64,000 nucleotides of DNA from Spirochaetota bacterium (GTDB lineage Bacteria; Spirochaetota; UBA4802; UBA5550), in contig CAXXHB010000003.1 in NCBI GenBank assembly GCA_963664815.2, positions 1,632,001-1,696,000 of the forward strand. Direction: 5' to 3'. A program made the position numbers and the translations under genes. The notes under the pieces were generated by a model. That model was not told the DNA's origin. It did not search any database and was given only the letters and a program-made list of their open reading frames with translations. Numbering within the stretch: position 1 is the first letter of the stretch; each line of letters opens with the position of its first letter. Of the stretch, positions 1 through 24,294 are shown piece after piece.

Positions 1-2
1 TC

Positions 3-788
3 CAGGTCGGCATTGACGAAAATAATAAATTTAAAATGGAAGGATGCTATATATACTCATCGGAGAATGAGAAACCGGCGGTCAGAAATAATTTTCTTTA
101 TCTGCTGCGTGATGGGATGGCAAGGAGCCTGTCAACACTGAATTCCGGAAAGATCGGGTGGAGTAGTGATTCTGTAAATTTCAGAGAGATAGATCTTAAA
201 ATAGTTCCAGATATTATATTCAGTCCAGGTAAGAGCAGACCGGAGATAGCAGATAAGACTATCGGGTTTTCTGAAAAAACGCCTTTTTTTATAAACGGGA
301 GGGATCCCTCTTCTTATATATACAATAACCGGTTTTTCTTTGATTCATGCACGGGAATAACTCCATGGAATCATTATGAAAACATGCATTCATTTATACA
401 GTATACAGGAACAATGGGTATAGAATATGAAATAGATTACCGGAGTGACAAAGAATTGAGGATAAAAAATGTTATTGAATCCGCAGCACCATTGACTGCA
501 CAGGAAAATGACTACCCCGGGGTCAGGTTAAGAACGGATTGGAGCAGCAGTCTCTATGGTATGATAACAGATATTCTTTGTTCGGACGGGGAATATCTTT
601 ACTGTTCATGCACAAACAGCAGGGATGAAATTGCGCGGATATCATTTAAAGATGGTTCCTTGTCAATGATCCGAATGAGCAAAAAAGACCTTTCTGAAAA
701 AAATTCAAATGCTCTCGGTTCTGCGGAGCCGTTTGGATGGCGTCTGAAGAATAACAGGATATTTTATTTAAAGAGCGGCAGATTATGA
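3..788 (+). CDS. Hypothetical protein, 5'-truncated by the window edge
   Basis: Frame is open from base 3 (QVGIDENNKFK) upstream of the ATG at 36. Its stop overlaps the next ATG (ATGA 785-788). Confidence 0.7.
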   Translation, partial: QVGIDENNKFKMEGCYIYSSENEKPAVRNNFLYLLRDGMARSLSTLNSGKIGWSSDSVNFREIDLKIVPDIIFSPGKSRPEIADKTIGFSEKTPFFINGRDPSSYIYNNRFFFDSCTGITPWNHYENMHSFIQYTGTMGIEYEIDYRSDKELRIKNVIESAAPLTAQENDYPGVRLRTDWSSSLYGMITDILCSDGEYLYCSCTNSRDEIARISFKDGSLSMIRMSKKDLSEKNSNALGSAEPFGWRLKNNRIFYLKSGRL

Positions 789-1753
789 ATGTAAAAGAAA
801 TGGCAGCCTTCTTTATACCATCAATACTCACTATTGCAGTATTGATGTATCTGCATGATACCGGTACGGCATGCTGGATTGTTTTTCTGGTGTCTTCGTT
901 TTTTACTCTTGTTATGCTGAAGATGATATATGATGATGACTCCAGCTTTCTTCGTTTATCGGTCTTTGCCGGTTTTCTTTTTTTTAATCTTTCTTCAGAA
1001 TATTTCGTTATGCTTGATCCTGACAGGATACTTGTTTTTACATCGGTAATATTTTTTATGGTTCAGTTTATCCTTATATCTTTATCAGTTCTCAGACATG
1101 ATTATAAGGAGATGGAGACACATCGTGAAGCGGTCAGGAATATCATTGATAAACCTGTGAAAACTGTTGATCAGGGTTCTATTCCTGAACCTGAACTTTT
1201 TTTTATTCATATCCCCGGTTCTGCGTTGCTGATACTGATATTTCTTGTTATAGGGGGGGTGAGCACAACACCTCTGAGAATTATTGCAGGAAATATTGTT
1301 TACATTTATATATTCCGTTTTACCGGAAAAATGGATGGTTCATCAGAATTCTATACTTACGGGAAAATGATTCCCGCCGCCGGTTTATACCTGATGTTAT
1401 TTCTAGTGTCATATTTTATTTTTTTCACTACAGGCCTGGCAATCTCCGGTTCGGATAATACAATAGTTCATATAATCGTCATTCTTCTATCATCCTTCAT
1501 TTCAGCTCTGACATGCGCATTTGTTAATTATATTTCAGTGCGTTTTTCCGGCGGGGATGGTATGCTAAAGCTTATAATTAATCATGCGATTGCCATTTCA
1601 TTTATTATAGCTATACCGGTTCTAAAGGATTTGTTGTTCTTTGAATTTAAACTGTTATGGATATTGTCATTTATCCCGTTTCTGGTTTTATGCGGTTATA
1701 TTGCAGACCATATTGTAAAATCCAGACAGGAAAAAAAATCTGTATCTGAATAG
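785..1753 (+). CDS. Polytopic membrane protein, unknown function
   Basis: 322 aa with about 8-9 hydrophobic segments; translationally coupled to the upstream ORF. Confidence 0.75.
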   Translation: MNVKEMAAFFIPSILTIAVLMYLHDTGTACWIVFLVSSFFTLVMLKMIYDDDSSFLRLSVFAGFLFFNLSSEYFVMLDPDRILVFTSVIFFMVQFILISLSVLRHDYKEMETHREAVRNIIDKPVKTVDQGSIPEPELFFIHIPGSALLILIFLVIGGVSTTPLRIIAGNIVYIYIFRFTGKMDGSSEFYTYGKMIPAAGLYLMLFLVSYFIFFTTGLAISGSDNTIVHIIVILLSSFISALTCAFVNYISVRFSGGDGMLKLIINHAIAISFIIAIPVLKDLLFFEFKLLWILSFIPFLVLCGYIADHIVKSRQEKKSVSE

Positions 1754-1786
1754 CATATTTGAATTTTAAGATAGGAGGGATATTTA

Positions 1787-2992
1787 GTGGAAGAATTTAT
1801 CGGTGTTATAGTGGGAGGTATAATAATTCTGCTGCTTGCACAACAATTTCTGGCTTGGCTTCTGGCTTTTTCCGCCGCCAGGTTTGTTATTTTTCTGGTT
1901 CTCTCCACTGGTCCTGCAATCGTTTCACTGTGGAATCAGGGAGGGATCAGTAAAATTCCAAGAAAACCATGGTATATGATTGAAATAATAGTTTATGCTT
2001 TACTTGTTGTAAAATGGGTTTCCGGCAGTATTGATTTCAGTAAAAGCTATACGGGGAACCTTATATTTTTTCTTCTTTTCTTTTTACTTTTTCATCTGGT
2101 TATAATAATTATAAGTGATAAAAAAAATAAAGATTATTTACAGTTGTATGCGGCTGTTTCTCCATTTTTTATGACTGGCGTATCTGTAATTTTTTTTGGG
2201 GTAGGTGAGTATAAAGATATATTCAGTAATGAAGTGACCGTTGAAAGAGTTTTATTAATAGTACTGGTACCTCTTGCTATATCACTTGTACTTTTTAGTA
2301 TTTTTCTTGCATTGAAGTTTTTTGTAATGAAGATTATTAAATTTACCAGAATAGTTTTTTCTTTTATTTTTAAAAAGATACCCCTACCGCCTTCAGAACA
2401 ATGGGAATCAGGCATGAATATACCACCAGAGAAGATAGTAAGGATATCACCGCAGTTCATTTTAATCAGTTCAGTTTTTTTCCTTATTTTGTTATCATTT
2501 TTTGTTTTTAATCCGGTATCTTTTCTTTTTAATAAATATATAAACCGCAGCGATGAATGGCTTATATATAACGATTATTCTATTACTCCTGTGACCATGG
2601 CTTCTCTGGGAAATTTTAAAATTCCCCGTACAGTGAAAAATAAGGTTTTGAAGGTTTTACCGCAGAAACAGGCAAAGCCGGATAATTTAAACAGTCTTTC
2701 GGATGACTTCGATATAAAAGATAAAAGGGCCGTTAAACCCCTTAATGAACTGACAAAAAAATATAAAAAAGATAAACATACAGGCCTTAAAGTTGATAAA
2801 AATACAGATTTTTTAAAGATGTTTGATCAGTATGGAAAGAAAAAGAGTTCCGGTATAGATAATAAAAGCCTGGATGACATCCTGAAGATGCGTAATAAAC
2901 TCATAAATCCTGAAGTGAAATGGGAAAATATAAATAAATTAAAATATAATAAACTGAAGATAAGTGAAGATGATCTATCCAAACCGCTATAA
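1787..2992 (+). CDS. Polytopic membrane protein with Lys-rich soluble C-terminal tail
   Basis: GTG start after an AGGAGG RBS; about 7 TM segments, then a hydrophilic tail. Confidence 0.75.
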   Translation: MEEFIGVIVGGIIILLLAQQFLAWLLAFSAARFVIFLVLSTGPAIVSLWNQGGISKIPRKPWYMIEIIVYALLVVKWVSGSIDFSKSYTGNLIFFLLFFLLFHLVIIIISDKKNKDYLQLYAAVSPFFMTGVSVIFFGVGEYKDIFSNEVTVERVLLIVLVPLAISLVLFSIFLALKFFVMKIIKFTRIVFSFIFKKIPLPPSEQWESGMNIPPEKIVRISPQFILISSVFFLILLSFFVFNPVSFLFNKYINRSDEWLIYNDYSITPVTMASLGNFKIPRTVKNKVLKVLPQKQAKPDNLNSLSDDFDIKDKRAVKPLNELTKKYKKDKHTGLKVDKNTDFLKMFDQYGKKKSSGIDNKSLDDILKMRNKLINPEVKWENINKLKYNKLKISEDDLSKPL

Positions 2993-3602
2993 CAGCTTTG
3001 AAAATTCCAGGCTCAATGTGGCGTCTATTATTCACGGCTCTATGTGCAACGGACCCGGACCGCATACTGTGATACATCTCCAGGGGTGCAGGTTCAGATG
3101 TGAAGGCTGCTTTAACGCTGAACTTCAGCGGGAAACCGTGGTAAAACTTATTCATCCCGATGAGATAGTACGGAATTTTCAATCTTATTCCGGGAATTTG
3201 TCCGGGGTTGTGATTAGCGGTGGAGAACCGCTTCTTCAGCCGGTCGGGGTAGGACTTCTTCTTTCAGGTCTGAAGAATGCCGGATTACGGACAGTTCTAT
3301 ATTCCGGTTACAATATAGAAGAGATAATTTTTAACGGCCTGTATGATATGGTAAAAATGGCAGATCTGCTTATATGCGGCAGGTATGTTAAGGGTCTGGA
3401 AATTGAAAGTTTTCCATATACATCGGGCAAGGCTATGATGTTTTTTTCTTCTGCTTATTCTCAGGAAGAGTTTGAGGCAATGGACTGGTCAAAAAAATAT
3501 GAGATACGTATTACGCCTGAAGGAGCAGTGTTTCTCGGATTTCCGCCTGCTGCGGAGATTGAAAATATGCGGAAACTGTTCGGTTCAGGATTGATGGAAT
3601 AG
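2964..3602 (+). CDS. Radical SAM protein, NrdG/activase-like 4Fe-4S single-cluster family
   Basis: NGPG...LQGCRFRCEGCFN (CxxxCxxC), ISGGEPLLQ, YSGY and DLLICGRY motifs. Confidence 0.85.
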   Translation: MKMIYPNRYNSFENSRLNVASIIHGSMCNGPGPHTVIHLQGCRFRCEGCFNAELQRETVVKLIHPDEIVRNFQSYSGNLSGVVISGGEPLLQPVGVGLLLSGLKNAGLRTVLYSGYNIEEIIFNGLYDMVKMADLLICGRYVKGLEIESFPYTSGKAMMFFSSAYSQEEFEAMDWSKKYEIRITPEGAVFLGFPPAAEIENMRKLFGSGLME

Positions 3603-3639
3603 TAAAAGGCAGCATACAGGTACTGATGCTGCCTTTTAC
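3602..3639. terminator. Bidirectional intrinsic terminator
   Basis: Perfect 14-bp inverted repeat GTAAAAGGCAGCAT / ATGCTGCCTTTTAC between convergent genes. Confidence 0.8.
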
Positions 3640-3661
3640 CGGATCCGCATACTTTAACATC

Positions 3662-3976
3662 TTAGCGGATTGAGGGGACAATTCTGACTTCAAGAATAAC
3701 TTTGTACCCGTCTTTTTCAAGAGATACCTGATCTCCGGAAGCCGTGAAATAACCTGAAAGAACTGTACCGTTATATTTATATATCCCGAAACCTGATACA
3801 GGGCGGCAGGACATAAAATTTCCGGTATAACTGGCTCCGTTTGAAAACTCGACTGTCTGTTCACCGTCTTTACAGTTAAGGGCTGCTGATCCGTATGTAA
3901 TGCTTTTATAGCTATCAGCAAAGAGAAGACCGGAACATACCATAACAGATGCCAGAACTAGAAATAATTTTTTCAT
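3662..3976 (-). CDS. Small secreted protein with a MORN-like repeat
   Basis: GGAGG RBS before ATG 3976; signal peptide MKKLFLVLASVMVCSGLLFA; FSNGASYTGNF...GFGIYKY. Confidence 0.75.
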   Translation of the reverse strand: MKKLFLVLASVMVCSGLLFADSYKSITYGSAALNCKDGEQTVEFSNGASYTGNFMSCRPVSGFGIYKYNGTVLSGYFTASGDQVSLEKDGYKVILEVRIVPSIR

Positions 3977-4175
3977 AATATCCTCCAAATTTTTTGTTTA
4001 TACCGGAACAGACGAAATTCATGGAATTTTTTTATAGAATTTTGGAAATTTTTTAAACTGTGTAATTTTTTTTGGGATTACCGGGTTTATTTTGTCTTTT
4101 TCAGTAAAGGGATGCAGCATAAATATATGTTTAACATACGAAGTAAATTTAATAGTTCAAAAGAAGTAGAATATT

Positions 4176-4697
4176 ATGAATAATCCTGGGAAAGGAATTA
4201 TCTATTTAGCGAGACTTGTAATTTTTATACCAGCTACTGTGTCTGTAATAGGGGCTATCTACTCAGGATTCAATTTAATTATGAATTTTATCTTCGGACT
4301 TAATCCGGTATGGACATTTTTTATTGTATTACTTACAGGATCTTTTGTGATGACTCTTTTTAAAAATCTGTCATTTTTAATTACTACTTACACTGCAAAG
4401 ATCAGCCCGTCTCCGCTTTTCGGATCGGCAGTAACCGGGATTGCGGCTGTGGGAGCATGCGGATATACAATCTACCTTATATGGAATATGTTTCCTAAAA
4501 TCGGATTTTTTGAAGTTGCAGGTACAGTGATATACTTAGGGTTTACAAGGGTAATTCCTGCAGGTGTGGTTGTACCTATTTCCTCAGGAGATGATAGGAG
4601 AAACAAAAGTTCTTTTGTTTCTCCTATTACAGCATTAGTGAAAACAGTATTTTTCATCTTGTTACCGGGCCACATCTCGAGTCAGAACATGAGGTAG
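4176..4697 (+). CDS. Membrane protein, 3' end uncertain
   Basis: About 4 hydrophobic segments; the 3' end overlaps the convergent ORFs. Confidence 0.55.
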   Translation: MNNPGKGIIYLARLVIFIPATVSVIGAIYSGFNLIMNFIFGLNPVWTFFIVLLTGSFVMTLFKNLSFLITTYTAKISPSPLFGSAVTGIAAVGACGYTIYLIWNMFPKIGFFEVAGTVIYLGFTRVIPAGVVVPISSGDDRRNKSSFVSPITALVKTVFFILLPGHISSQNMR

Positions 4698-5007
4698 GAG
4701 GAATTTCACCTGCCCTGTAAACACACCGGCATTTTCCTATCGAAGTATCAGGTATTCTGTTATTAATTCTTTCAAATGATTGTTCTGCATCATAACTATT
4801 TTTTAATCCCTGAATTGCTTTAAGCGAGTCATTAAATGATTTGCTATCACTTGATGAGAAATGAAAATTGTTATCGTAAGATTGATCATTTTTTTTCTCT
4901 GAGCAGCCTGATACCAATAATCCTGCAGCACCTGCCATCAGAATAGCAATACCGATTATTCGAAGAAAATTAAGACGTACTTTAAATTGATTAAACGGTT
5001 TTGTCAT
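4654..5007 (-). CDS. Small lipoprotein with Cys-rich C-terminus
   Basis: GGAGG RBS; lipobox-like LLVSG-C; C-terminal CRC...SC...RC. Confidence 0.65.
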   Translation of the reverse strand: MTKPFNQFKVRLNFLRIIGIAILMAGAAGLLVSGCSEKKNDQSYDNNFHFSSSDSKSFNDSLKAIQGLKNSYDAEQSFERINNRIPDTSIGKCRCVYRAGEIPPTSCSDSRCGPVTR

Positions 5008-5144
5008 TTTATATCCTCCATTTATTGTTAATTTTTATTTAATAGACGAAATAATTGTATTTTATTTTAAAATTTTTTTAAAAAAACCTGTAATTGACTT
5101 TTTAAAGGATGTATGCAATTACTGAAGTTAAGTACGAATTATCT

Positions 5145-5185
5145 GTCTAATACATATAACAAATCTGATCAAATATGTATTAGAC
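5145..5185 (-). terminator. Stem-loop at the 3' end of the SPFH paralog
   Basis: Perfect 13-bp inverted repeat GTCTAATACATAT / ATATGTATTAGAC, 8 nt past the TAG at 5194-5196. Confidence 0.6.
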
Positions 5186-5193
5186 GATTTACA

Positions 5194-6228
5194 CTATTTA
5201 TTCCCTGGTTTAATTTTATCCAGTACTGATGAAACTTCAGAACTAATGAATGATACAACAGGCAATATGTTGTTTTTATCATAATCCCCGGCAAATATTG
5301 TTATTTTTGAATTTTGTATAGAATCTGCAATATTTTTTGTAACCTGAGTCAAAGCTTTGATATAGTGATATTCTTTCTCAGAATCATATTGAGAGCGTTT
5401 TTTTTAAAATTCTGAATCAATAATTATTTTTGCTGTTTCTGCTTTATGTATTTCCAGATCTTTATTTTTTTCTTCAAATTTTCTTAATTCTTCATTATGA
5501 CTGATTTCATATTTTATTTTCTGATTTTTTTGGATCTGTTCGTTGCTCATGGTTTTCATAATCAGGTTATGATCAATATCAGTGAGAATTTCATCCTGCC
5601 TTTTTTTCTCCTGTTCTAACTCCAGTGTCTGAGCGAGTAGATTTCTTTCTTTATTTAGATTAGTCAGCCCGATGATCTCTTCCCGTTTAATAATTTCTTT
5701 TTCCTCATTTAGTTTAAGATTCTGTATTTCCTCAGCAGCTTTCATTTTTATAATATCCGGATCTTCCGGGTAAACTTGATCAAGATGAACTTCCAATTTG
5801 AGCCAGAATTCACTATATATTGACGATAAGGATTCGGTGATTTTTAAAGCAATTTCAATTCTTTTCTGATTACAATAATCAAAGCTGAGACGTGAACAAT
5901 GATCTCTTACATTCTCATAAACATCGTTCATGAGCTGTTCTATAATTTTTTCATGAACCAGCGTATTATTCTCAATATAAAGATTAACGGCTTGAATGGG
6001 ATCAATAACGCGGTAAACAACATGCCCTTTGAAACGGGTAGAAATAAAGTCGTAAGTTTCATGCAGAAATTTATAAACTACACCCTGCTGATTAGAGTCG
6101 ACGATTACATAATTCCCAAAATTTAAAAATGCAGATGCACCTCTTCCTTTATTAATAAATTTCATTTTTTTATTATCCCAACACAGCAACCATTGGTTAA
6201 TTTCGGTCTTTATAAAAATATTTTTCAT
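5194..6228 (-). pseudogene. SPFH/flotillin-like protein interrupted by one in-frame TAA (5404-5406)
   Basis: N-terminal band-7-like domain (GHVVYRVIDPIQAV) plus coiled coil. The same frame continues 69 codons past the TAA, and that tail resembles the C-terminus of the 9006-10076 paralog. Confidence 0.7.
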
Positions 6229-6325
6229 GTATACTCCTCTTTTTACAGTTTTAATTATAAATTTTCATTGAGCTCTTTTAATCTCTGGCCGGGTAATTAA
6301 GGGCTGCCGAGATACAACCCGGGTA

Positions 6326-8719
6326 TCATCTTCTCAAAACTTTACAGGCATCACTGTTTCCATTATTACATGACTTTATGGCATATAATCTTGCCTGAGA
6401 AATATTTTTTTCAATGCCGATTCCATTCGCATAATGAATTGCAAGATTCCAGCAGCCGAATGGATCATTTTTACGGCAGGCAATCTTAAAGTTATAAATT
6501 GCCTTCTGAGAATTTAATTTAATCTTTTTGCCGTCCGAATACATTACACCTAATCTATTACACGCTGTTGCATAACCATTGCTACAGGCAATGTTAAATA
6601 GATCCTCTGATTTTTTATAATCTGATTCTGTTCCATTTTCGTCAGAATACGTAATAGCAAGATTGATACAACCCCATGGATCATCATTTTGACATGCTTT
6701 AGTATAATAACTAATCGCCTTTTTTATATCGGCTGGCGCTCCTTCACCGCTCTGATAAATCATTCCTGCACCGTTGCATGCTATACCTGATCCCTTACTG
6801 CAATATGTTTCAAACAAGTTTAATGACTTTGCAGGATCTTTAATAACAATATTTCCTTTTCTGTACATTTCTGCAATATTGATACAACCCGATTCACTGC
6901 CATGACCGCATGTTTCATGAAAAAGACTATAAGCCTGTTGTTTATTACCGACTTCTAAATAAACATTTGCTAAAAAATTCTTAGTCATGTCAGATGAAGA
7001 GTTTATTTTAACTGCTTTTTTAAGATCAGCAATTGCAGATTTATAATTTTTCAGTATTATATAAGCTTTTGCTCTTCCCCGGAGAATGGACTCATCGGTC
7101 AATCCATTATTTATTTGTTTATTAAGCCATTCAATAGCTTTCCCTGCATAAAATTTCTGCGCTTTATTATCATATGCCTGTTCCTCAGCAAGGACTAACA
7201 ATCTGTTGACAATATCATAATGGCAAGAACCCTCCATGTTTTCTCTTACTGAGTTCCATCGCACAGAATACAGCCCACTTTCTTTATAAAAACAGCCCAT
7301 TATTCTATTCTTTAAACGATATAATGACGAATATACGCTGTAAAGTTGAGATGATTCATCTTCCCGTGTTATTCCATTTTCTAACACATAGATCAGTTCG
7401 TACAGTTGTTCACGATATTTTTTTGCTTTTAAAACATCTCCTGTAGCTGTTGAGAAATTCCATAAAAGATATGAGAGATAAAATTTATTATCTCTGTCAA
7501 GAGGCCTTTCTTGTATTTTATTCTCTAATATTGCGAGTGTTGTTTTTATTTCATCTGAATACCGTTTTGATTGATTTATGTATGTGTCCCATAAAATTGT
7601 ATATTTTTTCCGTTTCAGATAATTAACACGGATGTTATTGACACCCGCAACGGAGATGGAATTACTTTTTATAATTTTAAAGAACGAAAGCACTTCACCA
7701 TATTCTATTACTTTTTCTAATACTGGTTCATCTTTTACGTATTCATTGAAGTTTGCCGACATGTGCTGAGTTGCCCTTGCTACGGCTGGCCAGGAATCTT
7801 CAGGATTTCGGGAAGTAAATGTTATGCCCAGTAGTGATTCTTTATTAAAAGTGTTAAAAAATATTTTAATATCATGACTGCCCGGTTTAATGTTGTTCCC
7901 GTTTTTATTTATATTGAAATTGATATCACCAATTTGAAGAAACAGACGGACGTTCTGCATCCTTAATTGACGTTCCACTATGCGTTTTATATCAGGAAAA
8001 GAACCTTCTTTAATTCTAGAGAGATCATATAAAAATGGATTCTCATAGTTTTTTATTTTAGTATTCATAATATTTAAATCGGTTGTATAGCCATAAGCTA
8101 TGGCACCGAGAAGGGTATCAGCCAACGAAAGATTGACCGCTACAATATTATCCGGCTCCAACCCGGAGAAACTATCTTGGCTTGTAGCCCCAAAATGGTC
8201 AAAGCCATCGCCGTTAAATATGGAATCCCAGATAACTGCAATTTCCTCCCTGTTTATTGTTGGTTTATAAATATATTTACCATTGATTAGAAATGAATTA
8301 TGGTCATTATTATAACTTACTGTTTTAATATCATTACTAAATTTTCCAAATCCTGTAAGTAAAATTCCTCCAGGCATTTTCCCGAATTGCTGTTGAGTAT
8401 TATTAATTTGTTTTTTATCAGTTGAAATTTCAGATTTATATTTTCCAGGATCATTTCCAACGGATTCCCTGCGCCGTACCTGGAATTTCATTATATCATC
8501 GGCTAATTGCCGGACATCAGAGGAGTATTCAGGCGTACGATATGCTTTTTCAGATGCCTGTTCAGCGTTTGGATTACTATCTTTATAGTCCCGCGCGTAC
8601 CGGTATGCCTCCCAGTAGCTTGACATCGGTGTTATCTTTTCCTGAGCTATTGCAGGCATTATTGTTGTAATTAATGATAATCCGATTATTAACGTAGTTT
8701 TAAAACTTAATGATTTCAT
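6326..8719 (-). CDS. Secreted protein with unknown N-terminal domain, TPR and Cys-rich Sel1-like repeats
   Basis: Signal peptide ending AIA-Q; TPR-like RAKAYIILKNYKSAIADLKKAVKIN; about five ACxxG/NxxxG/AC Sel1 repeats. Confidence 0.85.
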   Translation of the reverse strand: MKSLSFKTTLIIGLSLITTIMPAIAQEKITPMSSYWEAYRYARDYKDSNPNAEQASEKAYRTPEYSSDVRQLADDIMKFQVRRRESVGNDPGKYKSEISTDKKQINNTQQQFGKMPGGILLTGFGKFSNDIKTVSYNNDHNSFLINGKYIYKPTINREEIAVIWDSIFNGDGFDHFGATSQDSFSGLEPDNIVAVNLSLADTLLGAIAYGYTTDLNIMNTKIKNYENPFLYDLSRIKEGSFPDIKRIVERQLRMQNVRLFLQIGDINFNINKNGNNIKPGSHDIKIFFNTFNKESLLGITFTSRNPEDSWPAVARATQHMSANFNEYVKDEPVLEKVIEYGEVLSFFKIIKSNSISVAGVNNIRVNYLKRKKYTILWDTYINQSKRYSDEIKTTLAILENKIQERPLDRDNKFYLSYLLWNFSTATGDVLKAKKYREQLYELIYVLENGITREDESSQLYSVYSSLYRLKNRIMGCFYKESGLYSVRWNSVRENMEGSCHYDIVNRLLVLAEEQAYDNKAQKFYAGKAIEWLNKQINNGLTDESILRGRAKAYIILKNYKSAIADLKKAVKINSSSDMTKNFLANVYLEVGNKQQAYSLFHETCGHGSESGCINIAEMYRKGNIVIKDPAKSLNLFETYCSKGSGIACNGAGMIYQSGEGAPADIKKAISYYTKACQNDDPWGCINLAITYSDENGTESDYKKSEDLFNIACSNGYATACNRLGVMYSDGKKIKLNSQKAIYNFKIACRKNDPFGCWNLAIHYANGIGIEKNISQARLYAIKSCNNGNSDACKVLRR

Positions 8720-9005
8720 AAATCCTCCAAATGAATATTTTGCACCGGCAAATCATTAACCTGCCTTTTACAATTGATTTAAACCTGCGGATGAACGTGC
8801 CATCTGCAAATAAATGTGGTGTCAAAACAGAATAGACGAAAAATATTTTAAAACTGACTTAAATGATTTATATAAATGAAAAATTTTTTTTATTCTGTGA
8901 AATGATTTAATCTCGTCTGTGATTATAAAGTTCAGCATTAAAAGATTTAACAAGATAATCTAATTAAAAATTATTGTATCAAAATATAGAATTAAGGAGG
9001 AAAAT

Positions 9006-10076
9006 ATGAGTTACATAACAGCCAGAGAGAGAACCTTCGATTCTTTCTTTTTTGTAAGAGCACTGCCTAATGAATACCTGGTTCTGGTGGGGAGAAGGAA
9101 ACTTCAATATTCACTTGGCGGGACAGCATTGCGGACTTTCAGACGGCACCTTAAGGTTCCAGCTTCTGCTGAAATAACATCATTTGAACTTGAATGCAGT
9201 ACTTCTAACTATCTTGGGGTAATTGTATCCGGTTATGTTGCATGGAGAATTGACCCGGTCAATGTAGAGATTGCGATCCGGAGCCTGGATTTTTATAATA
9301 CGGAGAATCCCCTTGACAAGACTTCGGGGCTTATCCGCGATATGGCAAAAGATGCTGTGAGAAGAAGTATTGCTGAAATTAAAATTGACGAAATTCTGAA
9401 ATCAGGGGACAGGTTAAAAGCTTCTATTGAGGGGATACTAAAAGATGTTGAAAAATGGGGTCTGATAGTTGATACGATAGGCGTTAACCGGATTTTTATC
9501 AAAAGCGAAAATGTCTATAATGACCTTCAAATGCATGACAGAGACAAACTTCGATTGATATCTGAAACATCCAACCAGGAGACTACATCCAAAATACGCC
9601 AGAATAAACTGGAGCAGGAGAGGGATATCCGCATAGGGGAGAGCCTTCTTAAGGAGACAGAGATTCGTGAAGGGCTGAAACAAAAAAAGATGTTCGAAGA
9701 GGCGGAAATGGAAAAAATGCGTCTTTTTAAAGAGAAGGAAAAAGAAGAGCTGCGACTTTCACAGGAACTTGAGGAAGCGAGGTATAACTACCAGAAAGAA
9801 CGTATTGAACATGATGATTATCTGCAGGGGATAAGATACGGAATTGAGATGAAAAATCTAGATATAGCTGAAAGAAAACGGCAGGTTGAAGGGGGCCTTA
9901 GCGATAGGGAACTGGCAGAGCTGATGGCGGAAAAACTTGAAAATATTTCCGGGATGTTCAGCAAATCCAATCTCACGGTGTTAGGAAACAGCGCGGAAGC
10001 GATGGGATCAATTCTTGCACCAATACAAATGGCGGGGGAACTGATAAAAGATATGTTGAATAAAAGCAGGGCGTAG
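9006..10076 (+). CDS. SPFH (band 7)/flotillin-like protein with coiled coil
   Basis: AAGGAGG RBS; PNEYLV, GYVAWRIDP, VRRSIAEIKIDEIL, KWGLIVDTIGV, followed by an E/K/R-rich coil. Confidence 0.85.
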   Translation: MSYITARERTFDSFFFVRALPNEYLVLVGRRKLQYSLGGTALRTFRRHLKVPASAEITSFELECSTSNYLGVIVSGYVAWRIDPVNVEIAIRSLDFYNTENPLDKTSGLIRDMAKDAVRRSIAEIKIDEILKSGDRLKASIEGILKDVEKWGLIVDTIGVNRIFIKSENVYNDLQMHDRDKLRLISETSNQETTSKIRQNKLEQERDIRIGESLLKETEIREGLKQKKMFEEAEMEKMRLFKEKEKEELRLSQELEEARYNYQKERIEHDDYLQGIRYGIEMKNLDIAERKRQVEGGLSDRELAELMAEKLENISGMFSKSNLTVLGNSAEAMGSILAPIQMAGELIKDMLNKSRA

Positions 10077-10087
10077 AAAGAAATTTT

Positions 10088-10135
10088 AAATCCTGATTTT
10101 TTTCACAATTCGCAGAAAAAGATTAGGATTTTTTA
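10088..10135 (+). terminator. Probable intrinsic terminator
   Basis: AAATCCTGAT / ATTAGGATTT inverted repeat followed by a T-run, just after the stop codon. Confidence 0.5.
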
Positions 10136-10242
10136 TTATAAAAATATTTTCAGATAAAATTAATCTGTAATCGGAAGCAGCAGTATGGATATTTGTATTT
10201 TCAGTATAACGGAAGTTTTCTTAATATATAAAGTATATCTTT

Positions 10243-10482
10243 CTCCGGAAGAGGCGTGCAATTCAGCTGGGGCTAAAGGGTGACATGCGGAAAGAGTATT
10301 CGAAAGAGGCGATTATTAATATTTATGATATGACACAGTTTGTAAATGACCAGTTTAATAATCTTCAATCTGGAGTTGTTGATGGCCTGATTATTCCTCT
10401 GGAAGAGGAATACATTGAGGGTGATGAAAATATAAAAAGAAGAATCGGATTACAGAATGACATATTTCAAATTCAGAATTAA
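10243..10482 (+). pseudogene. 3' remnant of a DUF4291-family gene
   Basis: RRAIQLGLKGDMRKEYSKEAIINIYDMT...LIIPLEEEY matches the C-terminus of 11596-12243 (KAIQIGL...EYSDAIVRIVDMS...LLPDERPY). There are in-frame stops upstream. Confidence 0.7.
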
Positions 10483-10593
10483 ATCTGAAAATTGATTGAT
10501 TATTCAATTATAAGGAGAATATATTAAAACTTATTTTGTAAATCGTCTATATATAATTAAAATAATTAATTTTAAAAAGATTGGAGAAATCAT

Positions 10594-11559
10594 ATGAAAA
10601 AGGCTATGGCAATAATATGCATTTTATCCTGCGCATGCTGCATCAGCTGCAAAAAAAGCCGGATTGACTGGCATAAGGAATTAAAATTAATTAACCCGGA
10701 AACTGCGCTTCTTCATGGGAGAATAAAATCCCTACACTCTTTTTATTATAAGGCAGATGAAAAATTCGGCAAAGTGATCAAAGTTGAAAGAATACCAGCA
10801 TATAAACTTGATAATGGTATACCTGAACAGCAAGTTTTTGATAAAAACAGAAACATTATAGAATCAATTTGTTTTGAGTCTGACAGCTCGATTCGTACAA
10901 AAATAACATATAAATATAATGAGAATAATCATATAACTGAAAGAAATGTATTTGATAGTTCCGGAACTCTACTAAGAAAGAATTCTTATATATATAATGA
11001 AAACGAATGTCTGGTTGAAGAGTTAACAATTAATAATAAAAATGAAATAGAAGTAAAAAACACATTTATATATGACGCAAGAGGGGATTTTGTTGAAGGA
11101 AATTCTTATAATTCCGATGGGAAAATATCCGGAAAAACAAAATCAAAATATGACGATGATAATAATTCACTAGAGATTATCAAATATAATCCTGATGGGA
11201 AACCGAAAGATAAAAACATTTTTAAATATAATTCCAAAGGGAGTTTCATTGAAGAAGATAGTTTTAATAAAGCTGGAATTCTTCTGGTTAAAACATTTTG
11301 GCAATATGATAAAAATGAAAGAGTAATTGAATCATTTGATTACAAAGGAGAATCTTCAGTAAAACTATCAAGAATGACATCATTATATGATGATAGCGGT
11401 AATATAATTGAAAAATGTGACTATATGGATGATGGCAGTCTTTTCTATAAAGTAGAATTCAAGTATATTTATGATAAAAACAATAACTGGATATCAAAAA
11501 TTCAATACTATAATGGGGTTCCTACTTTATTTGCAGAAAGAGAGATTGAGTATTATTAA
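10594..11559 (+). CDS. Lipoprotein with YD/RHS-like repeats
   Basis: Cys-containing lipoprotein signal; repeated Y(D/N)xxxNxxE...Y/F.SDG units; ends in EREIEYY. Confidence 0.8.
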   Translation: MKKAMAIICILSCACCISCKKSRIDWHKELKLINPETALLHGRIKSLHSFYYKADEKFGKVIKVERIPAYKLDNGIPEQQVFDKNRNIIESICFESDSSIRTKITYKYNENNHITERNVFDSSGTLLRKNSYIYNENECLVEELTINNKNEIEVKNTFIYDARGDFVEGNSYNSDGKISGKTKSKYDDDNNSLEIIKYNPDGKPKDKNIFKYNSKGSFIEEDSFNKAGILLVKTFWQYDKNERVIESFDYKGESSVKLSRMTSLYDDSGNIIEKCDYMDDGSLFYKVEFKYIYDKNNNWISKIQYYNGVPTLFAEREIEYY

Positions 11560-11595: not shown

Positions 11596-12243
11596 ATGAA
11601 CGAATCATTCTATAAAAACGAAAGGCCATACCGGGAGATACGGGCTGTGTTTGATGAAACTACAATCCGTGTTTACCAGGCCTTCAGCAGGGAGATAGCA
11701 CTCCCTGCTCTTGAAAAACAGAAATTTGTTGAGCCTTTCAAATTTGATATCAGGACTTCATGGATCAAACCTTCGTTTATATGGACGATGAAAAGAACGG
11801 GGTGGGGAAGGTTCAGTGCCGTTAGTAAAAACAAAGGCTATTCACTAAATGCCGATGATGCCCTTGTGCTGGCAGTTGATATTCCGCGTCCGTTTTTTGA
11901 ACGGATTCTCGCTGATGCATGGGTTAACCATTTTGAAGAGGATTTTGAAGAGAGCAGGAAATCGTGGCAGAGAAAAAGGGAGAGTTCGAATGTTTATGTA
12001 CAGTGGGACCCTGAGAAGTATCTGAGTGGCGGCGTAAGAAGATTCAAGGCCATCCAGATAGGCCTTACACCTGCTGTTCTCCGTGAATACAGCGATGCTA
12101 TTGTAAGGATTGTAGATATGTCTGGAGCGATTGAAAAAATTACAACTGCCGGGAGTGACGGGGAGAAGATTATGCTTCTCCCGGACGAAAGGCCTTATCC
12201 TGTTGATGAAAAATTGAAGTTTACGCTGCATATGCGGAATTAA
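11596..12243 (+). CDS. DUF4291 family protein
   Basis: IRAVFDETTIRVYQAF, RTSWIKPSFIWTMKRTGWG, VQWDPE, AIQIGL. Confidence 0.85.
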   Translation: MNESFYKNERPYREIRAVFDETTIRVYQAFSREIALPALEKQKFVEPFKFDIRTSWIKPSFIWTMKRTGWGRFSAVSKNKGYSLNADDALVLAVDIPRPFFERILADAWVNHFEEDFEESRKSWQRKRESSNVYVQWDPEKYLSGGVRRFKAIQIGLTPAVLREYSDAIVRIVDMSGAIEKITTAGSDGEKIMLLPDERPYPVDEKLKFTLHMRN

Positions 12244-12653: not shown

Positions 12654-12908
12654 ATGAAAAAGATACTTATAATATTCTGCATGATAGCCCTTGCAGGATG
12701 CGGCAACTGCAAAAAAAACACAAGCAACACAATCTGGGATAGTTTTAACCTTAAAGGGGAAATAAAAGAACTGCATACTTTTTACTACGAGGCTGAAGAA
12801 AAATTCGGCGAAATTCAGAAGGGAAAAAGATTAAGTGCATATGATAACTTTGAAGATGCAGAATTAATTACTTTTAATAAAAATGACCACGCAATTCAAA
12901 TAATTTAA
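12654..12908 (+). pseudogene. Truncated paralog of the YD-repeat lipoprotein
   Basis: GGAG RBS and LAG-C lipobox. LKGEIKELHTFYYEAEEKFGEIQK aligns with LHGRIKSLHSFYYKADEKFGKVIK, but the ORF stops at 84 aa before the repeats. Confidence 0.7.
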
Positions 12909-22654: not shown

Positions 22655-23587
22655 ATGAAGAAAAGCAGGAAACGCCTTGTATATGAGCAGCGCATATATC
22701 GTGTGCAGGATTACATAAGTACACATTTTGACCAGGAGCTGAATCTCGAAAAACTGGCTCAGATATCCGCTTTTTCGCCATTCCATTTCCACAGAATATT
22801 CAAGGCTATTGCAGGTGAAACACTTTATGATTTTATTCAGAGAATAAGACTGGAAAAATCATGCGCAATGCTATCCTCAGATAACGACATGAGAATCATT
22901 GATATTGCCCTCTGCTGTGGTTTTTCTACACCATCATCATTTTCAAAAGCCTTTAAACAGCGATATAATATAAGTCCATCGGAATGGCGTAATGGCGATT
23001 ACCGGAAAAACAGCAATTCAGGAAAGCAGATAAGCAATAATGGAACATATGAAAGCAAAACAGGCAAAGAAAAACATTCTCCTGCAGGTTATAGTAGAGA
23101 AAACGATTTGGAACAAAACAGGAGAAAAAAAATGAATGTAAAGATTGAAGTGTTTCCGGAGTATCGTATTGCCTATATGCGTCAGATTGGTCCTTACGGG
23201 CCAGATAATGTTCAGTTAATGGAAAAACTGAAGAAATGGGCAGCTGCAAGAGAACTGCTCGCTGAATCTGCAATAATTCTTGGAATTGCTCATGATGACC
23301 CGGATATTACACCTCCGGAAAAATGCCGCTATGATTGCTGCATTGTTATACCGGATGATTATAAACCTGAAAGCAACATCAACGAAAATAAACTCCCTGG
23401 CGGACGATATGCAGTTTATCAGGTTAAGCATACTGCAGCGGATATCGGAAATGCATGGAATGATATTTTTTCAGTCTGGCTGCCGGACAGCGGATATCAG
23501 ATTGATGACAGGCCGATCTTTGAAAGATATGCCGGCACAATGGAGGAGGTTACATGTGAGATTTGTATTCCGGTAAAGGCATTATAG
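22655..23587 (+). CDS. AraC family regulator with GyrI-like effector domain
   Basis: FSPFHFHRIFK, RIRLEK, GFSTPSSFSKAFK; C-terminal DDPDITPPEKCRYDCC and WLPDSGYQIDDRP. Confidence 0.93.
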   Translation: MKKSRKRLVYEQRIYRVQDYISTHFDQELNLEKLAQISAFSPFHFHRIFKAIAGETLYDFIQRIRLEKSCAMLSSDNDMRIIDIALCCGFSTPSSFSKAFKQRYNISPSEWRNGDYRKNSNSGKQISNNGTYESKTGKEKHSPAGYSRENDLEQNRRKKMNVKIEVFPEYRIAYMRQIGPYGPDNVQLMEKLKKWAAARELLAESAIILGIAHDDPDITPPEKCRYDCCIVIPDDYKPESNINENKLPGGRYAVYQVKHTAADIGNAWNDIFSVWLPDSGYQIDDRPIFERYAGTMEEVTCEICIPVKAL

Positions 23588-23597
23588 GTATTATGTG

Positions 23598-23649
23598 ACC
23601 ATAGCGGCGGTGAGCTTTCGTCTATACATGAAGGCTCATCGTTTGTGGT
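23598..23649 (+). terminator. Stem-loop after the AraC/GyrI gene
   Basis: ACCATAGCGGCGGTGAGCTTTC pairs with GAAGGCTCATCGTTTGTGGT using G-U pairs. Confidence 0.5.
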
Positions 23650-23799
23650 GGTATTGATCGTTTATTTCAAATTAAAATACATATTAAGGAATTAACATCG
23701 TATTTATTTATGAAATATTATTCTGTACAAAATTATTTGACATTAACAGCAGAAGTCGTATAAAAGTAATTAAATTAAAATGAAATTCATGGAATCTTT

Positions 23800-24294
23800 A
23801 TGTTACTGAACTCCGGAAATATTAAAAAAAAGTCCCGCATATTAAAAAGTCATTTTTTTGATACAGGGATTCCGGGAGAAATTTCTGATCAGATTTATAA
23901 TGATTACTGTGCAGATCTTGACAATATTCCCGGTATTGAAAATTACAGGCTGATTTCGAAGGATCTTCATGATTCATTAATTTCCATAAGACTGTCAGCA
24001 GATGATGTTATACTGGCTTTGGAGTTATACAATGATTTTGCAGGCAGCTATAAAAAAACACTGATATTTAAAGATGCCCGGATAATATCTTATAATAAAA
24101 TTCTTAAATCCGGTAAAATTTCAAGAATAAACAGGAAGATTGAGCCTTATGAATATTTGTATGATGAACTTTATTATGATGATAATTACTGTTATATAAC
24201 AATAATAGTAACGACAAAAAAAAGAGTTAAAGTTGAAGTTTATTTTCCGATATTGACTATCAGATTTAAAAAGATTGATATAGATAATCTGTAA
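23800..24294 (+). CDS. Hypothetical protein
   Basis: 164-aa ORF with DLHDSLI and YLYDELY motifs; co-directional with its neighbours. Confidence 0.6.
   Translation: MLLNSGNIKKKSRILKSHFFDTGIPGEISDQIYNDYCADLDNIPGIENYRLISKDLHDSLISIRLSADDVILALELYNDFAGSYKKTLIFKDARIISYNKILKSGKISRINRKIEPYEYLYDELYYDDNYCYITIIVTTKKRVKVEVYFPILTIRFKKIDIDNL

Follow-up and report, generated by a model that had tools for sequence, protein, structure and literature searches.

The locus analysed here raises the question of whether a set of neighbouring accessory genes works as one system. It lies at the left end of a 64,000-nucleotide (nt) stretch of DNA (the window; G000:C3:1632001-1696000) from a member of the Spirochaetota whose 5.2-Mb genome consists of three contigs, with a G+C content of about 38%. 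An earlier note on this DNA had proposed that two SPFH paralogues, a secreted TPR/Sel1-repeat protein, an operon of membrane proteins ending in an orphan radical SAM gene, and several small exported proteins form one envelope-stress or conflict module rather than a random mix; the open reading frames (ORFs) that it described are present where it placed them, by ORF list and sequence. We find that the flagged genes are the right-hand third of an accessory island of about 34 kb (G000:C3:1609229 to about 1644243), and the reading that we favour, to which we would give an even chance, is that of a single accessory island wired together by a motif and built around a multi-ATPase core like that of conflict systems. 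The island is strain-specific, with the same gene combination found nowhere else, and its function we infer.

A motif shared by six transcription units

The evidence that carries this reading is a short upstream motif, which the earlier note had mentioned without spelling it out. Exact copies of TCGTCTRT precede exactly five genes of the noted region, each copy being oriented towards its gene (Table 1). Two of them, at 8832-8839 and 8913-8920, are divergent with 73 nt between them and lie in a 286-nt control region common to the Sel1 gene and the intact SPFH gene (SPFH-B). When the sequence to the left of the window was inspected, the operon that ends in the radical SAM gene was found to continue there, with a sixth copy of the motif 54 nt before its first gene. 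Six transcription units thus carry T-CGTCT-R-T 20-113 nt before a start codon and pointing at the gene. The copy at the operon head ties the radical SAM operon to the SPFH and Sel1 genes, and is the strongest support for co-regulation.

The density of these copies is unusual for this genome. The window holds six occurrences of TCGTCTRT against 1.89 expected; genome-wide there are 143, of which 35 are intergenic as judged on a crude ORF map, and six of these 35 fall within 33.3 kb, all directed towards starts. The shorter TCGTCT is present in 26 of 2927 upstream regions of the genome and in five of eight consecutive ones here, which makes it the top-ranked hexamer cluster of the genome's upstream regions (p 3e-9) in a scan of every hexamer over every run of eight consecutive regions. 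What is conserved comprises the 8-bp core and A/T-rich flanks only, and no long repeats link the upstream regions. Judged from the sequence, the motif is probably a shared control element through which the island would be switched on as one regulon.

Elsewhere in the window, at 23618-23665 on the plus strand, one exact and two one-mismatch copies are spaced about 20 nt apart in the manner of a direct-repeat binding site, between a gene for an AraC/GyrI-like regulator (22655-23587) and one for an unassigned product of 164 amino acids (aa; 23800-24294).

The 17-gene operon

The earlier note was right about an operon of membrane proteins ending in the radical SAM gene, but what it saw is only the last 3.6 kb of 17 same-strand (+) genes spanning 26.3 kb. 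The operon begins at C3:1609290, which is 22.7 kb beyond the window's left edge; no gap between its genes is longer than 74 nt, and several of them overlap. In order, its products measure 317, 522, 1241, 611, 279, 172, 565, 101, 413, 479, 675, 84, 591 and 1791 aa, followed by two polytopic membrane proteins and, at the operon end, the NrdG-like radical SAM enzyme.

Four of these products carry AAA+ domains. In the 1241-aa protein such a domain (residues 1008-1140) follows a weak CHAT match (E 0.025) with HLICHG and LSVCGGG near residues 220-290, a fusion of which we found no description. Both the 611-aa and the 565-aa protein belong to the classical AAA+ ATPases (CDC48/Ycf46 type), each showing one active AAA domain in its C-terminal half and an N-terminal half of about 320 aa (Pfam AAA, E 2.4e-28 and 1.4e-34; VCP-like matches in the PDB at 1.5e-55), and their homologues bear Ycf46/SpoVK-type names. 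The former sits in a very large Ycf46/SpoVK-type family (7849 matches at E<=1e-20) and is matched over nearly its full length by phrog_8638, a phage family whose function is unknown (E 8.9e-86). Against PADLOC the two give single-protein matches, IetA-like and TRIP13-like. Finally, the 413-aa protein is a RavA-like AAA+ ATPase of the MoxR class (PF20030, E 1.1e-35; AAA_5, E 1.1e-14) with the P-loop GKPGVAKS. PF20030 also matches a conserved, housekeeping-like MoxR protein of the same genome (E 3e-30).

The remaining products are harder to place. By a simple hydropathy scan, which was used throughout to call hydrophobic segments and membrane anchors, the 591-aa protein has four such segments. 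PDB sequence searches with the 479- and 675-aa proteins were empty; no Pfam family matched the 1791-aa protein, and none in Pfam, NCBIfam, PADLOC or PHROGs the 322- and 401-aa membrane proteins. Relatives were seen at 88% for the radical SAM protein, and at 93% and 55% for the 611-aa AAA+ protein.

The radical SAM enzyme

The last operon gene encodes a radical SAM protein by its matches to Fer4_12 (PF13353; E 1.1e-18, 68.3 bits against a cut-off of 22) and PF04055 (34.5 against 29.5), its best family matches being TIGR02491, that is, NrdG (E 4.2e-19), and PflA. It resembles the NrdG/PflA activases in its small size and in the N-terminal CX3CX2C cluster motif, here CRFRCEGC, and PFL-AE (3c8f) is matched at E 1.8e-4. 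It differs from them in that it scores below every NCBIfam activase cut-off (TIGR02491, 69 against 126.1; TIGR02493, 55.6 against 231.75; TIGR02495, 51.2 against 131.15) and adjoins no glycyl-radical enzyme. PADLOC gave a weak pVip match of 22.9 bits.

Calling this enzyme an orphan, as the earlier note did, is fair, since the potential partners lie megabases away: NrdD (C3:4068459-4070270) has an activase-like gene of its own (4068059-4068421), and the only protein of the genome with a Gly_radical domain is a PFL-type enzyme at C3:3871192. No island protein contains the glycyl-radical motif R[IVT]xG[YFW]. At two other places in the genome, G000:C3:1787351-1787437 and 3971130-3971216 (minus strand), short ORFs of 91 and 66 aa match the NrdD profile only at its C-terminal, glycyl-radical end (positions 533-560); these may be stand-alone glycyl-radical "spare part" proteins.

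Candidate readers of the motif

CGTC-type -10 elements are typical of extracytoplasmic function (ECF) sigma factors, whose autoregulated promoters combine an AAC-type -35 with a CGT-type -10 element. The most likely reader of the motif would be an alternative sigma factor using CGTC as its -10. The genome has 14 genes of the sigma-70 family, about nine of them of ECF size. Within the island, the best candidate is the 317-aa product of the first operon gene, to which several weak leads point, short of proof. First, among Atlas clusters with a Pfam family, those nearest to it are Sigma70_r2 (0.94) and Sigma70_r4_2 (0.92), at 147 shared features, below the 170 typical of same-family matches. Second, hhalign against this genome's own ECF sigmas places residues 91-136 on region 2 when a three-sequence profile is used (E 0.006, low probability) and residues 236-281 on region 4 when the single sequence is used (E 0.06, low probability), the two regions being in the right order. 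Homologues occur in two of 300 other genomes of the phylum (E 7e-25 and 3e-23), with one further fragmentary match (E 4e-4). Both clear homologues lie directly downstream of a flagellin gene (L094:16312-19151; L096:1042-1986), and in G093 the homologue is followed by a protein like the 522-aa one, with hydrophobic stretches and an OmpA domain at its end.

The arrangement is like an ECF regulon in its invariant CGTC(T) core, in the spacing of the core from the starts, in the copy that precedes the operon of the candidate regulator, and in its envelope targets. It is unlike one in that the sites have no -35 element in common, Pfam does not recognise the candidate sigma, no anti-sigma was identified, and the 522-aa partner is free of membrane segments, unlike its homologue in G093. 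Were the 317-aa protein the reader, the circuit would be self-activating. One could then conceive of the island as a self-contained, self-activating new conflict or envelope-remodelling system, in which a divergent sigma-like protein drives the operon and five satellite units via a CGTCT-type element, and in which the satellites would supply SPFH scaffolds, lipoproteins, a predicted ADP-ribosyltransferase-like (ART-like) enzyme and a secreted protein whose 284-aa core has a fold unseen among solved structures. We consider this unlikely. The motif may instead be a transcription-factor site and not a sigma promoter; at 23618, two one-mismatch copies come after the exact one at a spacing of about 20 nt.

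On a plasmid-size contig (G000:C1:48544-51007, minus strand) there is an operon of an ABC transporter, an ECF sigma factor and a small membrane protein, in which GCAAT-N16-CGTCT occurs both before the operon and directly before the sigma gene, resembling an autoregulated ECF promoter pair. This sigma factor was rejected as the island's regulator: of the 12 occurrences of GCAAT-N16-CGTCT in the genome, none lies in the island.

These findings bear on an alternative that we hold to be somewhat unlikely, namely that the island is a patchwork of unrelated accessory genes in a variable region. The motif would then be recognised by a chromosomal regulator, either an ECF sigma or a transcription factor, whose regulon is scattered and under which several horizontally acquired genes came independently of one another; this would amount to co-regulation without common function. 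Consistent with this, 29 of the 35 intergenic TCGTCTRT copies are outside the island, before genes as heterogeneous as the ABC transporter/ECF sigma operon, an acyl-CoA dehydrogenase and a hybrid kinase; the triple site at 23618 precedes an unrelated gene; the genome has about nine ECF-size sigmas; no pair of island genes recurs elsewhere; and the genes flanking the island are likewise absent from four genomes of the same genus in which border synteny was sought. However, a scattered regulon would hardly lead one to expect so extreme a density, with six sites in 33 kb forming the top-ranked cluster of the genome and one of them heading the long operon, and the one ECF sigma whose promoter is clearly of the CGTCT type uses a form that is never found in the island.

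The two SPFH genes

The SPFH genes had been put at the centre of the module by the earlier note. SPFH-B is a clear Band_7 protein (PF01145, E 2.7e-10, scoring 41 bits where the cut-off is 23.6 and covering positions 6-170 of the 176 in the profile), whereas SPFH-A has no Band_7 match in Pfam, not even at E<=1, and is not matched by SPFH-B in BLASTP. A 337-aa protein of the relative G017 is matched by both (1.5e-10 and 4.5e-12), and hhalign of the two sub-alignments gives a probability of 94.4% (E 8.9e-8, 145 columns) at about 16% identity; the intermediate and the profile-profile match together identify them as true, very distant paralogues. An alignment of six SPFH sequences has a common layout of N-terminal domain, coiled coil and C-terminal tail. 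The description of the pair as divergent paralogues therefore stands, but SPFH-A is not one open frame: the TAA at 5404-5406 divides it into 274 and 69 codons, and the stretch past the stop aligns with the conserved tail of the family. Contigs of four DNA runs contained no variant at the stop and no informative joints; two of these runs may be the source, and in the other two the cover over the stop was thin. SPFH-A lies 97 nt from the Sel1 gene and has no motif of its own; it is probably co-transcribed with that gene.

With respect to HflK/HflC and the flotillins FloA/FloT, the likeness consists in two SPFH-type paralogues in a single locus, both of which have a coiled coil and a tail at the C-terminus. 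The differences are that the island pair is so weakly identical and is not adjacent in one operon, that neither protein has a predicted membrane segment, that one copy is interrupted, that homologues elsewhere are single, and that no FtsH protease or NfeD partner was identified. A working pair of the HflK/HflC kind is unlikely given the premature stop, the lack of predicted anchors and the separate transcription units, and the heteromeric scaffold that had been proposed finds no support. We accordingly give very little credence to an envelope-stress module in which such a pair, HflK/HflC- or flotillin-like, organises the secreted Sel1 protein and the radical SAM operon plays an accessory part. 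The two SPFH genes do flank the Sel1 gene, they are paralogues, and SPFH-B shares its divergent control region with that gene, as such a module would have it. However, the stop in SPFH-A removes the conserved tail, no anchor is predicted in either protein, and none of the 32 loci with SPFH-B homologues that we found in GTDB species genomes holds within its flanks a further, separate paralogue or anything related to the N-terminal domain of the Sel1 protein; the closest homologue (56% identity, in a Salinispira metagenome-assembled genome (MAG), L026) lies among unrelated genes. A literature search on SPFH proteins in anti-phage defence found nothing relevant.

The secreted Sel1/TPR protein

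The 797-aa protein between the SPFH genes is, as had been described, a secreted TPR/Sel1 protein, with a signal peptide and matches to Sel1 (98.7 bits against 30.7, in three stretches) and TPR_1 (31.1 against 27.8), its repeats being confined to residues ~520-797. The N-terminal domain found nothing in Atlas and word-indexed searches. A full HMMER scan of 1.84 billion representatives recovered 106 relatives, 45 of them at E<=1e-10. Among 40 aligned relatives, 11 have Sel1 repeats, one has MORN_2 repeats, and four, in which the domain lies near residue 1100-1400, are relaxase/helicase proteins of the TrwC type; the three top matches examined (P0003, P0004 and P0006) have signal peptides. Nearly invariant positions include PGG 116-118, Glu159 and Asp201 (numbered as fragment position + 87).

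The structure prediction that had been suggested for this domain was carried out with AlphaFold2 from the alignment. It gave a predicted local distance difference test score (pLDDT) of 84.3 for a 494-aa fragment, and a pLDDT of 95.4 with a predicted template-modelling score of 0.92 for a 284-aa core. With the 494-aa model, fold searches matched only the helical tail; with the core, the best result was E 0.1 in Foldseek against the PDB, Z 3.5 in VIA-align over 48,161 chains (none at Z>=5), and E 0.067 against BFVD. The core is thus a confidently modelled domain that, as a model, is without a solved look-alike. Whatever the island does, this family of about 100 representative clusters, comprising secreted proteins and TrwC-type relaxases, is a structural target.

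Distribution in other genomes

The gene-neighbourhood search found homologues of the SPFH, Sel1 N-terminal, radical SAM and MoxR proteins in unrelated neighbourhoods. Homologues were counted in 40 genomes of relatives, the wider sets being the GTDB species genomes and 401 genomes of the phylum. Among the 40, SPFH-B has a homologue in four only (27-33% identity), the Sel1 N-terminal domain in one (22% identity, on another contig than its SPFH gene) and the radical SAM protein over most of its length in two only (29-31% identity); for the MoxR protein there was no close orthologue, only generic AAA-domain matches, and a metagenome scan with it gave no match. The radical SAM homologues in G002 and G017 adjoin a thiazole kinase and a zinc-ribbon protein, and those of MoxR and the Sel1 domain in relatives are likewise in unrelated contexts. 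When the neighbours of SPFH-B homologues were clustered, for 26 of the 32 loci (the six shortest, of 2.2-5.2 kb, being left out), no family recurred except through synteny among three related Bacteroidales MAGs. The motif was not seen upstream of those homologues in other genomes that were checked. Since the homologues occur in unrelated neighbourhoods, an outcome that the earlier note had itself named as counting against its proposal, the idea of a conserved module fails, while the local wiring in this genome remains: the genes are linked here through the motif, as the earlier note had supposed in speaking of one module, but no conserved SPFH-centred module exists among the genomes searched, and the envelope-stress reading is not supported.

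A split DDE transposase lies just upstream, at the left edge of the island, and raises the possibility that the island is not a working system but cargo, now decayed, that a mobile element, conjugative or otherwise, had carried. The occurrence of the Sel1 N-terminal domain inside TrwC-type relaxases, the phage family matched by an operon ATPase, the stop-broken SPFH gene and a truncated lipoprotein paralogue would fit such an origin. Against it, no relaxase, integrase, type IV secretion or phage structural gene is found among 26 island proteins scanned, and 17 tightly packed, intact genes with six conserved motif copies argue for selection on function; we therefore regard decayed cargo as very unlikely. 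A prophage was rejected, there being no structural PHROGs among the scanned proteins.

Relation to known conflict systems

The nearest known systems are those of Kaur et al. (2020, eLife; PMC7159879), who, in the sections drawn on here, describe ternary conflict systems centred on MoxR and vWA proteins, including FtsH-type and beta-propeller-type systems. According to these sections, the P-loop variant GXXXTAKS occurs in both of these types; the FtsH-type has two FtsH-type AAA+ domains, the first inactive, as its third component, and counts among its stand-alone effectors a radical SAM enzyme for which peptide modification is the suggested role; the vWA domains may have diverged strongly; the scaffolding domains listed are Band7, TPR and coiled coils, and Sel1 is listed as a cell-wall-associating one.

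As far as these sections allow comparison, the island is similar in several respects. One operon combines a MoxR-class AAA+ with an unusual ...AKS P-loop (GKPGVAKS, close to GXXXTAKS) and classical AAA+ proteins. Large unknown alpha-helical proteins and membrane proteins are present, and a stand-alone radical SAM gene occupies the effector end. A caspase-like (CHAT) domain, the Band7, TPR, coiled-coil and Sel1 accessories, and a sporadic, island-like distribution complete the likeness. The differences are also several. No vWA domain was detected, and the only one of their Pfam families that matched is PF20030. The classical AAA+ proteins of the island are Ycf46/CDC48-like with one recognisable AAA domain each, and its SPFH and Sel1 proteins come from separate genes and transcripts and are not fused to a vWA protein. 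Nor do the sections used describe, for those systems, a promoter motif common to several units or anything like the island's possible own sigma factor. By analogy, the island resembles nucleoside triphosphate-dependent conflict systems; its membership among them is unproven.

Other genes in and next to the noted region

The smaller genes complete the picture (Table 1). The product of 3662-3988 has no Pfam family. The DUF4291 gene (PF14124, E 3.6e-45) follows the 10594 lipoprotein gene by 37 nt and is probably in one transcript with it; in the section of a 2025 survey used here (PMC12522546), the family is predicted to have an atypical ART-like fold. Upstream of the truncated paralogue at 12654-12908 there is only a degenerate form of the motif, ACGTTTAT.

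Table 1. Features in and next to the island (window coordinates unless a contig or locus is given)
Feature	Position	Strand	Description
317-aa and 522-aa genes	L011:12290-14811 = G000:C3:1609290-1611811		operon genes 1-2
1241-aa gene	L011:14814-18539 = G000:C3:1611814-1615539		CHAT-like His/Cys pair and C-terminal AAA+
611-aa AAA+ gene	L002:1553-3388 = G000:C3:1615553-1617388		classical AAA+, CDC48/Ycf46 type
1791-aa protein	L002:13413-18788; C-terminal 261 codons at window 3..788	+	gene 14 of 17; hydrophobic segment 16-52
322-aa polytopic membrane protein	785..1753	+	~8 hydrophobic segments; start overlaps preceding stop
401-aa membrane protein	1787..2992	+	~6 hydrophobic segments, Lys-rich soluble tail
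NrdG/PflA-like radical SAM	2964..3602	+	212 aa, last operon gene; 29-nt overlap with preceding gene
Small exported protein	3662..3988	-	signal peptide, hydrophobic N-terminus; likely true start ATG at 3976
Motif TCGTCTGT	4008..4015	-	20 nt before start 3988
173-aa membrane protein	4176..4697	+	4 hydrophobic segments; without own motif
117-aa predicted lipoprotein	4654..5007	-	LVSGC lipobox
Motif TCGTCTAT	5042..5049	-	35 nt before start 5007
SPFH-A	5194..6228	-	SPFH-like paralogue, in-frame TAA at 5404-5406
Sel1/TPR protein	6326..8719	-	797 aa; signal peptide, conserved N-terminal region, C-terminal TPR/Sel1 repeats
Core of N-terminal domain	7607..8458	-	residues 88-371 of the Sel1/TPR protein, 284 aa
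Motif TCGTCTAT	8832..8839	-	113 nt before Sel1 gene start 8719
Motif TCGTCTGT	8913..8920	+	86 nt before SPFH-B start 9006
SPFH-B	9006..10076	+	356 aa, Band_7, coiled coil, conserved C-terminal tail
65-codon ORF	10285..10482	+	lacks signal peptide, family and motif; perhaps not a gene
Motif TCGTCTAT	10543..10550	+	44 nt before start 10594
321-aa predicted lipoprotein	10594..11559	+	short beta-hairpin-like repeats; only weak YD/RHS repeat matches
DUF4291 gene	11596..12243	+	PF14124
84-aa truncated paralogue of 10594 lipoprotein	12654..12908	+	BLASTP 40% over 95 columns, E 4e-15

A model for the island

In the model that we favour, one common motif would switch on six units together. The first would be the 17-gene operon, with its sigma-like candidate, the 522-aa partner, the CHAT-like/AAA+ protein, two classical AAA+ ATPases, the MoxR-class ATPase, membrane proteins and the radical SAM enzyme; the second and third, the small exported protein and a lipoprotein; the fourth, the secreted Sel1/TPR protein with the stop-interrupted SPFH-A behind it; the fifth, the intact SPFH-B; and the sixth, the repeat lipoprotein followed by the gene for the DUF4291 (predicted ART-like) protein. 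The AAA+ and MoxR chaperones would assemble or release a membrane-embedded effector set, of which the radical SAM enzyme would modify a protein or peptide, and the SPFH, Sel1/TPR and lipoprotein components would act as scaffolds on the envelope side. The combination appears to be local to this genome and not a conserved module.

Several observations weigh against this model and have to be set beside the motif. First, the six sites have no fixed -35 element in common, a sigma-70-type scan was not enriched (48 found against 44.2 expected), and neither were one-mismatch variants of the motif (65 against 65.8). Second, as to the parts, the 317-aa protein has no Pfam match even at E<=1 and its PDB sequence search was empty; PF20030, by which the MoxR-class protein is recognised, is unspecific in the phylum, matching in 372 of 401 genomes at E<=1e-10; no vWA family was matched at E<=1 by the 479-, 675-, 591- and 1791-aa proteins in Pfam; and one SPFH gene is broken. 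Third, no complete PADLOC-DB v2 system matched, only single proteins, and none of the 32 SPFH-B loci has another island gene within <=10 kb (tblastn with 31 island queries), the sole match outside SPFH being a generic one to an unrelated Sel1-repeat protein (L033). Nothing of the combination recurring elsewhere, it is the motif by itself that argues for functional unity.

Taken together, if the motif is a real shared control element, sequence alone will have sufficed to delimit a large and otherwise unclassifiable accessory island and to group its parts in one regulon. Conserved neighbourhoods are often missing in conflict islands, and it is there that motif-based grouping could help. If the favoured model is true, multi-ATPase conflict systems would gain a radical SAM enzyme, SPFH scaffolds and periplasmic repeat proteins as separate, co-regulated genes.

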